A stretch of 57,342 bases of DNA, the filler included, from an uncultured virus (IMG/VR IMGVR_UViG_2049941000_000905) (taxonomy: Duplodnaviria > Heunggongvirae > Uroviricota > Caudoviricetes). It is 30 parts of one record of this genome, joined end to end, with 100 filler letters (N's around TTAATTAATTAA, not from the genome) between each part and the next. Parts side by side here need not be neighbours in the genome. Positions count along the whole stretch, not along the records: positions 27,835 to 31,027 come from IMGVR_UViG_2049941000_000905; 29 more parts are not named here. One strand, written 5' to 3'. Shown here piece after piece: positions 27,431 to 48,638 of the stretch. The notes below the pieces were generated by a model. The model saw nothing but the letters and a program-made list of their open reading frames with translations, was not told the origin of the DNA and did no database searches. How positions within the stretch are numbered: position 1 is the first letter of the stretch; every line of letters begins with the position of its first letter. The position numbers and the translations under genes were made by a program.

Positions 27431-27734
27431 ATTTGAGAGTAGTACGAGGTAGCCCCAAATATAGAGCATAAGCCGCTATTGCAGGACGTCTATTTAATTC
27501 ATAGCATCTTTTGAGGTATGTAGTAGTCCTATCTTTGACGGCTTGAAAGTCATTCATATCCACAGGAGGCGTATCCATTAGACTAATACCCTCTTTAAGA
27601 AGTTCAAGTGTAGTAGACTCTGGTCTGCCTCCATATTGAGTCAAATTCTTTTCTTCGCTATTTGCGATAGACTTTCTAATTTCGACTTCTGACTTAGTAC
27701 CAGTAGCAGGACGACCACGTTTACGAGGTGTAGA
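27431..27734 (-). CDS. terminase small subunit-like fragment with AT-hook-like PRKRGRP
   Basis: YLKRC....RPAIAAYALYLGLPRTTL resembles DNA-packaging HTH of TerS. Confidence 0.55.
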
Positions 27735-27834
27735 NNNNNNNNNNNNNNNNNNNNNNNNNNNNNNNNNNNNNNNNNNNNTTAATTAATTAANNNNNNNNNN
27801 NNNNNNNNNNNNNNNNNNNNNNNNNNNNNNNNNN

Positions 27835-28032
27835 TGCCTCTGGCTGAAAAACCTTCCTCCGCTCGTTCATACGAACGTAGTGGAACCGCAAGGCTATTGG
27901 ATCGGAGCGCATGGACACGACAAGGCGAAAAAGGGAATGTCAAAGGGTTTCCGGGATCAGAAGACCCGGAGCAAGACCTTCCCCGGCATTGCCAAGGCAA
28001 TCGCAGACCAGTGGGGAGGGATCGCTGAGTGA
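27835..28032 (+). CDS. DNA cytosine methyltransferase, C-terminal fragment
   Basis: RSKTFPGIAKAIADQWG, the conserved C-terminus of the family at 26969. Confidence 0.85.
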   Translation, partial: CLWLKNLPPLVHTNVVEPQGYWIGAHGHDKAKKGMSKGFRDQKTRSKTFPGIAKAIADQWGGIAE

Positions 28033-28235
28033 AAACCATGTCCTACAACCCCGATGAAATCATGCGGGAAATCGAAGAGCGCGCGGAGTGGATCGAATTC
28101 CGCGCCTCTTCGAGGAAAAACAAAGACACATCGCTCGACGAATACAGAGCGATGTCGTATGAAAAGCGCAAGCTGGAGCATGAATGCGCTCTGGCGGTTG
28201 AAAAATGTCTATCAAAACGCTATGGGAGGGCGTGA
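28029..28235 (+). CDS. small hypothetical protein
   Basis: GTGA overlap with the methyltransferase stop; GGAGG RBS. Confidence 0.65.
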   Translation: MKTMSYNPDEIMREIEERAEWIEFRASSRKNKDTSLDEYRAMSYEKRKLEHECALAVEKCLSKRYGRA

Positions 28236-28237
28236 AA

Positions 28238-28513
28238 ATGAAAATCACCAGAACCATCAACGGTCAGAAGGTTGAAATCGAACTCACCGCAGAGGAACGC
28301 TATTCTGCATATATCGAGGAAAAGCGCGACCTCGACATCTCGGAACTATACTGGACGTGGCAGAACATCTGCGACGATGAGGAAATCGAGCGCGACTTGA
28401 CAGAAGACGAAGTCGAGGATGCTCTTGAACGCTACTACAATCGTGTAGAGTGGTGCGATCAGCAAGCCACCGAAATCCGGTATGAAATCCTACAGGACTA
28501 CCTTGAAGACTAA
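28238..28513 (+). CDS. small highly acidic protein (91 aa)
   Basis: GGAGG RBS; 28 D/E versus 10 K/R by manual count. Confidence 0.75.
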   Translation: MKITRTINGQKVEIELTAEERYSAYIEEKRDLDISELYWTWQNICDDEEIERDLTEDEVEDALERYYNRVEWCDQQATEIRYEILQDYLED

Positions 28514-28581
28514 CGCAGACTGACGGGGGAAACCTCCCCCGGTAATGCGGGACAGCGCAAGCTGTGCGGTCAGCACCCCGC
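28514..28581 (+). ncRNA. twister self-cleaving ribozyme (circularly permuted, P5-type)
   Basis: CGCA-GA-CTG / P1 hairpin GGGGGA-aacc-TCCCCC / TAA-TGCG (P2) / P3 ACAGC-GCAA-GCTGT / P4 GCG-GTCAGCACCC-CGC; both pseudoknots can pair. Confidence 0.8.
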
Positions 28582-28618
28582 TACAAATGAAAATCTATTC
28601 CACGAAGGAGGGCCGCAT

Positions 28619-28855
28619 ATGAAATTCACACGCGACCATGTACGCCAAGCGTACAACGAAATCGATCGCCGGGTGGAACACACCATCCGGCATGAAAACC
28701 TGACCGAACCGGAGGAAATCCACGACCTCATCGTCACCATGCTCCAGGGACTTTATGCTGTCTTCTGTGCCATTGCGGACAACTGGCCCGAAGTCAGGAT
28801 GTGGACGGAAGAAGAAGAGAGAAAGCGCGAATACTTCTGCGAAGAAGGGAAGTGA
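28619..28855 (+). CDS. small hypothetical protein (78 aa, acidic)
   Basis: AAGGAGG RBS directly downstream of the ribozyme. Confidence 0.7.
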   Translation: MKFTRDHVRQAYNEIDRRVEHTIRHENLTEPEEIHDLIVTMLQGLYAVFCAIADNWPEVRMWTEEEERKREYFCEEGK

Positions 28856-28860
28856 AACTA

Positions 28861-28890
28861 TTGACAAGCGAGAAAACATCGTGCTATAAT
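28861..28890 (+). promoter_or_regulatory. strong sigma-A promoter
   Basis: TTGACA-18bp-TATAAT with extended TG. Confidence 0.75.
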
Positions 28891-28920
28891 GGCATGGAGG
28901 AAACCGAAAGGAGAAACACC

Positions 28921-29367
28921 ATGCCAAGGGAGAAAAAACACGAGAACGGTTACGCTAAAAGCCCGGAGGGGGTGGCATACCGGAACCAATATCGCGGGGA
29001 GCATTACTCGCGAATGGAAATCTTGATACCACCAGAACTCAGGACAAAGATCGAAGAACGCGCAGCCGAAGAGGGCATCAGCAGAACCCAGCTCATCGTC
29101 AAAGCATTAACAGCATACATGGAGGCGGCATCCGAAAGCCGCAGAAAGGAAATCAAAATGAAAACCATCACCCTTCTCAACCGCATTCGCGCCATGACAA
29201 ACGAACAGCTTGCCAAGACCATCCGCGAAGCAGACGAATGGGATCCCGAAGCACTCGCCGAACTCTGCAAGAGAGCAGGACTCGAAAACGAATGGAAAGA
29301 AAGCGATGGGGACACGTTTGAGTCCGTCGCATACCGTGCCGCCGAAATTCTCGGCGTTGAAATCTAA
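28921..29367 (+). CDS. ribbon-helix-helix-like protein, in frame with a second small gene starting at 29158
   Basis: SRMEILIPPELRTKIEERAAEEGISRTQLIVKAL RHH pattern; second RBS/ATG at 29158. Confidence 0.7.
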   Translation: MPREKKHENGYAKSPEGVAYRNQYRGEHYSRMEILIPPELRTKIEERAAEEGISRTQLIVKALTAYMEAASESRRKEIKMKTITLLNRIRAMTNEQLAKTIREADEWDPEALAELCKRAGLENEWKESDGDTFESVAYRAAEILGVEI

Positions 29368-29385
29368 GAAGCAAGGAGGAACGCC

Positions 29386-29607
29386 ATGAGAATCGACCTG
29401 ACGGTAAGATACAAGTGCGGATGTGAAGAATGCATCCGCACGGTTATCGGTATTCCGCATGAACTCGCATCCGCTCCGCGATCCAAGGCAAACGACCGCA
29501 AGATCGCGGACTACATCAAGGAAAACTATCACATCAACTGGAGATGTCCGAAGGGGCACGGCATCGGAATCGACAGCGGTTTCGATGATATTATCGGCAT
29601 CAACTAA
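29386..29607 (+). CDS. small Cys/His-containing hypothetical protein
   Basis: AAGGAGG RBS; YKCGC...CPKGH possible zinc ribbon. Confidence 0.65.
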   Translation: MRIDLTVRYKCGCEECIRTVIGIPHELASAPRSKANDRKIADYIKENYHINWRCPKGHGIGIDSGFDDIIGIN

Positions 29608-29623
29608 CACGGGAGGACTGACC

Positions 29624-29688
29624 ATGCCGAAAAAGAAATATGAAGAGGGATACGATAAGTCCCCGGCGGGGATCGCGTACCGAAACCA
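29624..29688 (+). CDS. paralog of the 28921 RHH-like protein, N-terminus only
   Basis: MPKKKYEEGYDKSPAGIAYRN versus MPREKKHENGYAKSPEGVAYRN. Confidence 0.65.
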
Positions 29689-29698
29689 NNNNNNNNNN

Positions 29699-30227
29699 TC
29701 CCGGAAGCCGCCGAAACCTATCTGCAATCCCTCGCATCCCTCGGAAAATCACCGCACACCATAAGACTGTACACGACCGTCCTGCACCGTTTTGGGGACT
29801 TCCTCTCCCGCCTCGCCGGGGAAATCACTCCGGCAACCATCGCCGCATACCGCTCACAGCTCTCTGGGGGCGATCTGAGCGCGAACAGCGTCAGACAGCA
29901 CCTGACTATCATCCATGCGTTCTTCGCGAAAATAGAGGCCTTCTCGCGTGTCTCCGGCGGGGATGAGCGAAATCCCGTACTCCGGGAGGAAATCCCGGAG
30001 GAAGTCCCGGTGGACTACGACGATGTGCTGACAGCGGAAGAAATCAGGATCCTGCTCGACACGAAACCGAAAGCGACCACCGCCGGAATCCCGCTCCGAA
30101 ACTACTGCATCATCGTCATGCTCTTGCAGACGGGACTCCGCAATTCCGAACTCCGCGCCTTGACGGTGGAGGATCTCGACTTTGAAAACCACATCGTCAC
30201 CGTCAGGCACGGCAAGGGGTACAAGGG
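29699..30227 (+). CDS. tyrosine recombinase (XerD-like) fragment
   Basis: GKSPHTIRLY core-binding domain; RNYCII.MLLQTGLRNSEL..L...DLDF....V.VRHGKG.K. Confidence 0.9.
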
Positions 30228-30237
30228 NNNNNNNNNN

Positions 30238-30444
30238 GACGATCCCGCGAAAGCCCTCCGGGAACCGACCGTATTCTACAAGTGCATCAACATCTTCCCG
30301 CCGTCCGCCATATGGTATGAAACCGAGAAGGAAGCGAAGAAGGACGCAGACGGAATCGACACGATCTACGTCGGACCCATCGAGTTCTACGACGAGTACG
30401 AAATCCAGCGCATCAAGGATGAGATCGCATCCTATCCCGCATGA
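30238..30444 (+). CDS. small acidic hypothetical protein, C-terminal part
   Basis: Open frame from gap to stop; unrelated to the recombinase. Confidence 0.5.
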   Translation, partial: DDPAKALREPTVFYKCINIFPPSAIWYETEKEAKKDADGIDTIYVGPIEFYDEYEIQRIKDEIASYPA

Positions 30445-30450
30445 AAATTG

Positions 30451-30482
30451 CCCCCTCATTCCGAGGGGGCTTTTTCTTTTTC
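30451..30482 (+). terminator. intrinsic terminator ending the + strand island
   Basis: GCCCCCTC-attcc-GAGGGGGC followed by TTTTTCTTTTT, at a convergent gene junction. Confidence 0.8.
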
Positions 30483-30950
30483 GCTTGAAATCTTTTCGTA
30501 GCACGTCACGCCGACGGCAATTGCTTGCCAAACATCGGCGGACACCCCATAGAACGTGTCCGGGTCCTTCTTCGTTCCCTTTCCCGTCTTGAAATCTTTC
30601 TTCGCGTAGCGGTTTATCAGTTCCTGCCGTATGTTGGAATCCTTTGCTTTCATGCTCCCGCAGATTGAAATCTTTTCCTCTCTGCGGAAAATGTACTCCA
30701 CGGGACGTCCGAGTTCCTGCACGAATCGCCCGATCCAGATACAGGTGTCGAACACATCCGCGCCGACGGGCATTCCATAGGACGCGATCTTCTCTATCGC
30801 CACCGCATCCGCCTTGGATGAAATATCCCGCAGACACTTGACGAGTTCCACGTTTGCAGATTTGTTGAAATCGAGCAGCTTGAAATCCGGGAGGGAGAGC
30901 AGAGCATATCCCGTGAACTCGTTTCCGGGATCGAGCGCGAGAATGTTCAT
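30456..30950 (-). CDS. RuvC-like Holliday junction resolvase (phage)
   Basis: ILALDPG, VAIE.IASYGM, AKD, DVWQAIAV. Confidence 0.8.
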   Translation of the reverse strand: MNILALDPGNEFTGYALLSLPDFKLLDFNKSANVELVKCLRDISSKADAVAIEKIASYGMPVGADVFDTCIWIGRFVQELGRPVEYIFRREEKISICGSMKAKDSNIRQELINRYAKKDFKTGKGTKKDPDTFYGVSADVWQAIAVGVTCYEKISSEKEKAPSE

Positions 30951-31127
30951 GCTCTCACCTCACAGCAATCGCCGCCACGTTGAAAATCATCAGCACGATA
31001 ATCATAATCACCGTCGCGAGGAATTCCNNNNNNNNNNNNNNNNNNNNNNNNNNNNNNNNNNNNNNNNNNNNTTAATTAATTAANNNNNNNNNNNNNNNNN
31101 NNNNNNNNNNNNNNNNNNNNNNNNNNN

Positions 31128-43117: not shown

Positions 43118-43191
43118 TGGGCTCAAGTGGACTCGAACCACCGACCTCGCGCTTATCAGGCGCGCGCTCTAACCAGCTGAGCTATGAGCCC
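43118..43191 (-). tRNA. tRNA-Ile(GAT), in 16S-23S spacer context
   Basis: Full cloverleaf GGGCTCATAGCTCAGCTGGTTAGAGC..CTGATAA..GGTTCGAGTCC. Confidence 0.95.
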
Positions 43192-45965: not shown

Positions 45966-46446
<481 letters not shown>

Positions 46447-47892: not shown

Positions 47893-48538
47893 TCGTGCTC
47901 TTCACACTCGGTTTCCCTGCGGCTCCGATCCTTCAGATCTTAACCTCGCTGCATACAATAACTCGCCGGACCATTCTACAAAAGGTACCATATCGCGCCT
48001 TAACGCGCTCTATGTGCTTGTAAACATACGGTTTCAGGTTCTTTTCACTCCGCTCCCGCGGTTCTTTTCACCTTTCCCTCACGGTACTTCTCCGCTATCG
48101 GTCATCGGGTAGTATTTAGGCTTGGATGATGGTCCACCCGTATTCTCTGCGGATTCCACGTGTCCGCAGATACTCTGGATACTGCTCGCTCCTCTTCCGT
48201 TTTCACCTACGTGGCTCTCACACCCTTCGGCGCGCCTTCCCATGCGCTTCGGTTAACTCAAGGATACGTCTTGCAGTCCGAACCCCGGAGATATTGCTAC
48301 CTCCGGTTTGGCCTCTTCCGCTTTCGCTCGCCACTACTCGCGGAATCTCGTTTGATTTCTCTTCCTCCGGGTACTTAGATGTTTCAGTTCCCCGGGTTCC
48401 CCGCATATACCTATTGATTCAGCATATGCTCCGCGATTCTTCATCGCGGGGGTTCCCCCATTCGGAAATCTGCGGGTCAAAGCTCATTTGCAGCTCACCG
48501 CAGCTTATCGCAGCTTGTCACGTCCTTCGTCGGCTCCC
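47893..48538 (-). rRNA. rrl: 23S rRNA fragment (5' region), variant B
   Basis: GGTACTTAGATGTTTCAGTTC and CCCCATTCGGAAATC conserved motifs. Confidence 0.97.
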
Positions 48539-48638
48539 NNNNNNNNNNNNNNNNNNNNNNNNNNNNNNNNNNNNNNNNNNNNTTAATTAATTAANNNNNN
48601 NNNNNNNNNNNNNNNNNNNNNNNNNNNNNNNNNNNNNN

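Follow-up and report, generated by a model that had tools for sequence, protein, structure and literature searches.

A predicted type-P5 twister ribozyme between two co-directional reading frames in phage-like metagenomic DNA

Judged by its sequence, the element at positions 28514-28581 (+) of the window (the whole stretch of DNA analysed, 57,342 nt) is a genuine, ordinary member of the known twister family. Its core is intact and it lies between two co-directional open reading frames (ORFs). The reading that we favour, with a probability of roughly 0.8, is that it is a functional type-P5 twister with P3 and without P5, which would cleave itself and thereby separate two cistrons; the cleavage we infer from homology and from published bulk assays.

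Results

The Rfam twister-P5 check proposed in the preliminary description of this DNA gave a match. The element aligns with Twister-P5 (RF02684) over the full length of the model (1-58 of 58) at 45.7 bits, compared with a cut-off of 37.6, and with an E value of 2.4e-6, in agreement with the claim that it is a twister ribozyme. No other ribozyme is matched in the 57-kb window at E<=1, and a search with a degenerate twister-P5 pattern gives one hit where shuffles lead to an expectation of 0.01. The unconstrained minimum free energy (MFE) fold of the 68 nt (-31.5 kcal/mol, z -2.67, with 1 of 200 shuffles equally good) yields P2, P1, P3 and P4 with 4, 7, 5 and 4 bp, respectively; it agrees with the Rfam structure line and reproduces all the stems that had been proposed. 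The stems, of which P1, P2 and P4 are essential, follow each other in the type-P5 order, that is, P2 5' strand, P1 hairpin, P2 3' strand, optional P3 and P4 hairpin. The coordinates of these and all other features are collected in Table 1.

A P5 helix, which would close the open ends and from which the type takes its name, was not found: the flanks (…GACUAA and UACAAAUG…) are without complementarity, and the fold of the extended region contains no P5. Since the 5' flank is the stop codon of the upstream gene, P5 cannot be drawn. Because P5 is optional in the twister class according to PMC5408937, and is also absent from the Rfam structure line of RF02684, the membership of the element stands without it. 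We also considered a pairing of the P4 5' strand (GCGGUC, 28566-28571) with GGCCGC at 28611-28616, in the gap between the Shine-Dalgarno (SD) sequence and the ATG, and dropped it. It appears only in the MFE fold of the extended region, has an ensemble frequency of 0.016 and is absent from the centroid, and in these fold models it is probably due to chance.

Table 1. Features of the putative ribozyme and of the piece that carries it, in window coordinates.
Feature	Position	Strand	Basis
Twister ribozyme, type-P5 permutation, ends in P4-P2 junction, P3 present	28514..28581	+	RF02684, MFE fold
P2 5' strand CGCA, partner UGCG 28546-28549	28514..28517	+	Rfam alignment, MFE fold
Active-site guanine (general base) counterpart G28518; A28519, A of the A·A trans pair	28518..28519	+	homology, as described in PMC5408937
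T1 5' strand CUG, partner CAG 28571-28573	28520..28522	+	sequence; family covariation
P1 hairpin, 7 bp CGGGGGA/UCCCCCG, loop AACC	28524..28541 (28524-30 with 28535-41)	+	Rfam alignment, folds
Predicted scissile bond U28543 (N-1)/A28544 (conserved A, general acid)	28543..28544	+	UAA aligned to Rfam; PMC5408937 description
P2 3' strand UGCG	28546..28549	+	Rfam alignment, MFE fold
T2 5' strand GG, partner CC 28576-28577	28550..28551	+	sequence; GG/CC in 11 of 75 (matches listed)
P3 hairpin ACAGC/GCUGU, loop GCAA, optional stem	28552..28565 (28552-56 with 28561-65)	+	MFE fold; subclass P3s
P4 GCGG/CCGC with loop L4 UCAGCACC	28566..28581 (28566-69 with 28578-81)	+	Rfam, MFE; roles as described in PMC5408937
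L4 content: T1 3' strand 28571-73, C28574, A28575, T2 3' strand 28576-77		+	alignment, MFE fold
DNA methyltransferase-like gene, 3' end	27835-28029	+	phrog_757, E 2e-11
68-aa ORF	28029-28235	+	ORF listing
Upstream ORF of 91 aa, start ATG preceded by GGGAGGG (as listed, from 28205)	28238..28513	+	no family
Leader, 37 nt, with SD AAGGAGGG at 28605-12	28582-28618	+	sequence
Downstream ORF, 78 aa, ATG 28619	28619-28855	+	one distant relative, 41% identity
Sigma-70-type promoter-like site TTGACA-18-TATAAT	28861..28890	+	12/12 hexamer matches, extended -10 TG
Arc/CopG-like gene, ATG 28921, 31 nt after the promoter-like site	28921-29364	+	phrog_582, E 2.9e-6
Integrase fragment	further along the piece, across gaps		PF00589, E 5.6e-11
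RuvC-like resolvase	further along the piece, across gaps	-	phrog_1770, E 4.2e-16

The UAA at 28543-45 aligns with the Rfam consensus and puts the predicted cleavage between U28543 and A28544, the same bond as proposed before. According to PMC5408937, about ten nucleotides in L1/L4 are more than 97% conserved; the A 3' of the cut and the G of the active site belong to them, as do the U·A and G-C pairs that extend P4. Measured against this description, which is not the original list, the window keeps A28544, A28545, G28518, A28519, U28570, A28575 and G28569-C28578, and deviates at C28574 only.

Both pseudoknots are intact and complementary. In the comparison of the sequence with the Rfam alignment, T1, which joins L1 and L4, consists of G28522-C28571, U28521-A28572 and C28520-G28573, and T2, which joins L2 and L4, of G28550-C28577 and G28551-C28576, and all five pairs are Watson-Crick. 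For comparison with the family, IMG/VR was scanned with a pattern that fixes the conserved core and leaves the T1 and T2 positions free, which gave at least 126 distinct matches in at least 125 stretches. A filter that is blind to T1 and T2 (P1 hairpin dG <= -7 kcal/mol and the two outer P4 pairs) was passed by 75 of the 126 matches listed. Three standard T1 pairs are present in 71 of these 75 listed twisters (1000 shuffles averaged 31.2 and did not exceed 43), and in 12 of the 51 listed matches that failed the P1/P4 filter. Among the 75, the middle T1 pair is U-A in 39, G-C in 23, C-G in 5, A-U in 4 and something else in 4, and the outer T1 pair is G-C in 66, A-U in 4, U-A in 1, C-G in none and unpaired in 4. 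T2 is GC/GC in 32 and GG/CC in 11 of the same listed twisters; it is in register in 48, and in 26 more the 5' strand is shifted by one nucleotide.

We further built an alignment (A1) of 52 sequences, namely the window and 51 filter-passing copies chosen for similar P1 and P3 lengths; seven of its rows are members of the subclass described below and were included deliberately. Pairing is kept in 95.7% of its cells, compared with 79.0% after shuffling (none of 500 shuffles as high), and falls to 29-39% when the partners are slid by 1-3 columns. The T1 columns are paired in all 52 sequences (100%), with changes on both sides. The T1 and T2 pseudoknots are supported by family-wide covariation, and the earlier claim that both covary is borne out well beyond this copy, in A1 as well as in the 75 listed twisters. 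By this sequence comparison, the U-A middle pair of T1 and the GG/CC of T2 are common family variants, and only the outer C-G pair of the window is rare. To call the pseudoknots non-standard, as the preliminary description did, was thus an overstatement: U-A is found in the middle of T1 in more than half of the listed sample, GG/CC forms T2 in 11 of the 75, and the exact combination of the window recurs in 39 credible sequences.

These sequences were collected with a pattern for CUG/CAG together with GG/..CC, scanned in viral, genome and metagenome collections. It matched 10 contigs in IMG/VR, 4 contigs in species-representative genomes (an Oscillospiraceae MAG, a Bacillota MAG, a Dormiibacterota MAG and Hyphomicrobium) and 32 metagenome stretches, of which several duplicate viral contigs. 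The Hyphomicrobium match has no P1 and is probably due to chance. Including the window, this makes 40 distinct sequences, 39 of them credible. Their P1 and P3 hairpins differ wholly in sequence and length from member to member, and the pairing is kept in all.

The members of this CUG/CAG subclass share a second peculiarity. By the account in PMC5408937, the L4 nucleotide 3' of T1 extends this pseudoknot through a non-canonical A·A trans Watson-Crick pair. Of the 39 credible sequences, 32 have C there, 5 have A and 2 have U, compared with A in 73 of the 75 filtered, listed general viral twisters. In the window, A28519 would accordingly face C28574 where an A·A pair is usual. Before the metagenome scan, C at this position accompanied the flipped outer pair in 11 of 14 cases and occurred in 1 of 75 elsewhere among the matches listed (Fisher p 1.2e-10, a value that is not a probability of independent events, because the sequences are related). 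The flipped outer T1 pair thus co-occurs with the A-to-C change.

In the run at the RF02684 gathering cut-off, 5 of the 10 viral subclass relatives pass (L002 with 45.6, L006 with 40.3, L010 with 39.5, L009 with 39.2 and L004 with 37.8 bits). L005 has 37.6 bits, exactly the cut-off, and is listed in the E-value run only; L003 (36.3) and L007 (32.3) lie below it, and L001 and L008 have no RF02684 match at E<=1. The suspicion that this variant might score low with standard models therefore proved unfounded for the window copy, which is well above the cut-off, and justified for its subclass.

The published record on the positions involved is as follows. In CHiTA (McKinley et al. 2024, PMC11662667), roughly 2,600 natural twisters were assayed in bulk and about 94% of those tested are described as active. 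For natural twisters with A-to-C in the A·A pair the difference from controls was not significant, whereas for those with A-to-G it was; this tolerance is a class average and was obtained with RNAs other than the window copy. The same source reports that some twisters without visible imperfections still cleave poorly. PMC5113685 describes any change at G13, G30, A46 and G48 as disruptive. By our own mapping, the counterpart of A46 is A28519, which is kept, the counterpart of G13 is G28550, which is unchanged and still has a C as partner, and at the counterparts of G48 and G30 both partners of the pair have changed in a compensating way. The accessible text of the deep-mutational-scan paper makes no mention of the A28 position. 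Because A-to-C is tolerated and the G48 and G30 changes are compensated, the variant of the window is, as far as these sources describe the class, natural variation that is already known and not a new architecture.

The window is made up of dozens of short draft contigs, with N44-TTAATTAATTAA-N44 linkers (e.g. 27735-27834), 10-N scaffold gaps and N runs of up to 970 nt, and genes are often cut in it (portal, integrase, phosphodiesterase and rRNA fragments). Since it consists of joined short contigs, we did not assume neighbouring pieces to be linked. Other pieces hold a tRNA and partial bacterial 16S/23S rRNA (43118-43191, 46104-46431 and 48032-48549), cut by N runs, from which we take it that the bin mixes cellular and phage-like contigs. 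The piece with the ribozyme spans 27835-31027, of which only 27835-29688 (1854 bp) is contiguous. The piece at 27431-27734 was compared as the possible middle of the methyltransferase whose fragments flank it, and does not carry it.

On the ribozyme piece, the TAA stop of the 91-aa ORF (28511-13) directly abuts the start of the ribozyme at 28514. Terminator-like sites are absent from 27835-29688 (shuffle mean 3.2), and the one promoter-like site found on the piece compares with 1.1 expected from shuffles, a count that is not significant when taken alone. The Arc/CopG-like protein has an N-terminal motif, MPREKKHENGYAKSPEGVAYRN, that is found again as MPKKKYEEGYDKSPAGIAYRN at 29622-29688, just before the 10-N gap at 29689, which suggests a second, paralogous gene cut by this gap. 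The 91-aa and 78-aa flanking proteins have no Pfam or PHROG family. No locus in viral contigs was confirmed for the flanking proteins, nor did tblastn find a match in annotated phages, and in a large protein collection the 91-aa protein retrieved only itself and the 78-aa protein only the relative given in Table 1. When the 1854-bp piece was compared with phages by blastn, the one match (83 nt, 77%) lay in the methyltransferase end and was uninformative. The piece has the look of phage or mobile-element DNA, with orphan ORFs on both sides of the ribozyme. The ribozyme had been placed between two phage genes. Two co-directional ORFs are indeed present, the upstream one with its stop at 28511-13 and the downstream one with its ATG at 28619, but neither has a family match. 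As the immediate neighbours are without family and the phage-like genes lie further away, their phage nature is only partly verifiable.

The position of the ribozyme relative to the genes is shared with its relatives. In the window, as in 7 of the 10 viral relatives from the subclass, an upstream ORF ends 0-1 nt before the ribozyme. For the 39 subclass sequences triplets were checked and not ORFs; 28 of them have a stop triplet whose end lies 0-2 nt before the ribozyme. In the general sample (74 usable of the 75 matches listed), an ORF of at least 50 codons ends between -2 and +2 nt from the ribozyme in 36 copies and at offsets of 3-40 in about 22, and 48 copies have an SD-led start at a distance of 10-39 nt behind the ribozyme. 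The layout of the window, with the stop abutting and an SD-led start 37 nt on, is typical of the family. We also observed that in 11 of the 74 listed copies (sample L011-L135) the upstream ORF ends at -10, on a UGA made of the T1 GUG and the following A, so that the coding sequence overlaps the ribozyme by 10 nt.

Further ribozymes are frequent nearby. Additional Twister-P5 copies are present in 7 of the 10 viral subclass loci, and a pistol (L003) and a hammerhead II (L006) each lie within 1.5 kb of a subclass twister. L003 (77-141, 1401-1587) carries the pistol together with two adjacent twisters 40 nt apart, and L006 (934-1009, 1842-1906) a DUF3800-VIII RNA and the hammerhead II within 1 kb of the twister. 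These ribozyme-crowded loci fit the gene-neighbourhood associations of ribozymes from phage regions described in PMC6765202. Arrays of twister-P5 copies spaced every ~300-600 nt were seen in L051-L053 (6 on a 10.6-kb viral contig), L068-L069 (5 on a 5.5-kb contig) and L038 (3), and suggest strings of small genes, each separated from the next by a ribozyme.

By contrast with the ribozyme, which is common to these loci, the neighbouring genes are not: six flank proteins of the window have no tblastn match (E<=0.01) in any of the 139 loci compared. What does recur behind subclass ribozymes is a module of TTGACA, a GGGTTTACCC-type palindrome that is repeated after TATAAT, and a gene of ~60 aa. It lies ~20 nt past the ribozyme in L001, L007, L009 and L010, and is also found in L003, L008 and many of L142-L170. 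The ~60-aa product is conserved, starts with MAMPD.PSK.RWD.EN and has no Pfam or PHROG family. From its sequence, the TTGACA/GGGTTTACCC/TATAAT part has the appearance of an operator-controlled promoter. We gave up the idea that twister and RHH gene form a shared module, the small gene behind the promoter and palindrome being without family.

Discussion

How would such an element act? A + strand message reading from the 91-aa ORF into the 78-aa ORF would include the ribozyme, and this RNA would fold into the double-pseudoknot twister core. As PMC5408937 describes for the family, the backbone would then be cut between U28543 and A28544 by internal transesterification, assisted by Mg2+, with G28518 as putative general base and A28544 as putative general acid. 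The 5' product would end in the GC-rich P1 hairpin followed by GU, with a 2',3'-cyclic phosphate on U28543. The 3' product would begin with a 5'-OH on A28544 and consist of AAU, the P3/P4 body in folded form and the 37-nt leader, predicted to be unstructured, with its strong SD. The folds computed for the two products agree with this picture, as the upstream RNA has the 7-bp GC-rich P1 hairpin at its 3' end and the leader ahead of the SD is unstructured in the downstream RNA (z -0.5). The most likely effect would be that one bicistronic RNA becomes two molecules with separate stabilities and fates. Depending on the host RNases, a 5'-OH end may make the downstream RNA more stable or less so (glmS/RNase J1 literature). 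Cutting of polycistronic messages is the standard hypothesis in the literature, and a physiological benefit to the gene at 28619 is something that we infer from it; PMC6765202 treats a message-processing role of twisters as suggested and not as established.

It is possible, although we rather doubt it, that the ribozyme instead marks the end of the upstream unit and does not mature the mRNA of the 28619 gene. Read-through RNA would then be cut, the P1 hairpin would protect the upstream message in place of an intrinsic terminator, and downstream genes with a promoter of their own would be uncoupled. The lack of terminator-like sites in 27835-29688 is consistent with this, as is the 7-bp GC-rich hairpin in which the 5' product terminates. 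At least 4 of the 10 viral relatives (L001, L007, L009 and L010) moreover have TTGACA-N17-TATAAT with the GGGTTTACCC-type palindrome 20-21 nt past the ribozyme, and similar TTGACA sites can be seen by eye in L003 and L008 and in many metagenome copies. In the window, however, the SD-led gene starts after 37 nt without an intervening promoter-like site, and the promoter-like site at 28861-28890 comes only after the 78-aa gene; the 48 of 74 listed general copies with an SD-led start at 10-39 nt point the same way. Because an SD-led gene follows directly, the layout of the window favours cistron separation over an end-of-unit role, and the two are not mutually exclusive.

It would be improbable, in our view, that the element is a selfish or mobile RNA module which spreads between intergenic gaps of phages and is of no benefit to its carrier. 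Unrelated genes do adjoin the subclass copies, the six flank proteins find no counterpart in the 139 loci, and some contigs hold several twisters (6 in 10.6 kb in L051-L053, 5 in 5.5 kb in L068/L069); yet the regular placement, with a stop codon abutted and an SD or promoter next, suggests integration into gene expression as opposed to random insertion. Quite improbable is also a decayed twister fold, which would have lost all or nearly all cleavage through the flipped outer T1 pair and C28574 and would persist as a passive spacer or stability element. The rarity of C at the A·A position, the lower Rfam scores in the subclass and the existence of poor cleavers without visible imperfections, as reported in PMC11662667, would be compatible with decay. 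Both pseudoknots are Watson-Crick throughout, however, A-to-C brought no significant loss in the bulk assays of that source, and in the 39 credible subclass sequences the core is invariant while P1 and P3 covary freely, which is the signature of selection on the fold including its catalytic nucleotides. That the element resembles the twister consensus by chance, finally, is a negligible prospect. The motif is short, but it matches the full model with an E value of 2.4e-6, the degenerate pattern is expected 0.01 times per window, and every stem and both pseudoknots pair, so that this reading is effectively refuted.

With cistron separation by a cleaving twister as the preferred reading, the subclass invites one further proposal, which we put forward tentatively and consider unlikely: CUG/CAG twisters might represent a co-adapted alternative T1 architecture, in which the flipped outer pair and the C at the stacked non-canonical pair would form a third-order covariation that keeps the geometry of the active site. 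In addition, with the stop codon 0-2 nt upstream, a paused ribosome would cover the 5' strands of P2 and T1, and cleavage could then be gated by translation of the upstream gene and not be constitutive. In the texts accessible to our literature search, with the 2014/2015 discovery papers standing outside it, we found no paper on stop-codon abutment or on the CUG/CAG subclass.

In summary, thousands of twisters are known from phage-like DNA; this draft metagenome bin contributes one more, and the picture of the class is unchanged by it. The comparison brings out two small leads, the coupled change of T1 and of A·A to A·C in a subclass and the tight placement at stop codons. The subclass that combines C at the A·A position with the flip of the outer T1 pair is a recurring one, and the Rfam cut-off misses half of the members sampled. 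As a rule, viral twister-P5 copies extend from the upstream stop codon to just before the next ribosome-binding site or promoter, and to have this placement in numbers sharpens the question of what twisters do in phages.

Among other small ribozymes, hammerhead type II (RF02276) and pistol (RF02679) share the same kind of phage-like neighbourhood and have unrelated folds; neither gave a match on the short piece of the window in the Rfam ribozyme search at E<=1. A 2026 paper on ribozyme-driven translation initiation deals, in the part accessible to us, with eukaryotic RNA viruses only. The description of the twister class itself goes back to Roth et al. 2014, summarised in PMC5408937. With type-P5 twisters (RF02684, clan CL00120) the window shares the full-length match above the cut-off, P1, P2, P4 and the optional P3, both T1 and T2, the U/A cleavage dinucleotide followed by A, the G of the active site, a P4 extended by U·A and G-C, and the permutation with a loop-closed P1. 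It differs from them in its outer T1 pair, which is C-G and not the usual G-C (0 of 75 in the listed general sample), in having C28574 where an A of the A·A trans pair is usual, and in lacking P5.

Osa-1-4 and env22, the solved type-P1 twisters, have the same core by the descriptions in PMC5408937 and PMC5113685. In our own mapping from the consensus, G28518, A28519 and C28520-G28522 correspond to Osa G45, A46 and G47-G49, and U28570-C28577 to Osa U24-C31. The window differs from these two in that it is circularly permuted and has P3, and in that T1 is CUG/CAG instead of GGG/CCC and T2 GG/CC instead of GC/GC; relative to Osa, A28 is replaced by C and A46 is kept. A further parallel, in sequence variation, is offered by the natural variants of the CHiTA study (PMC11662667), which covers activity and not genomic context. 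They share with the window the A-to-C change at the A·A position and Watson-Crick-variant pseudoknots, and by that account they are active on average.
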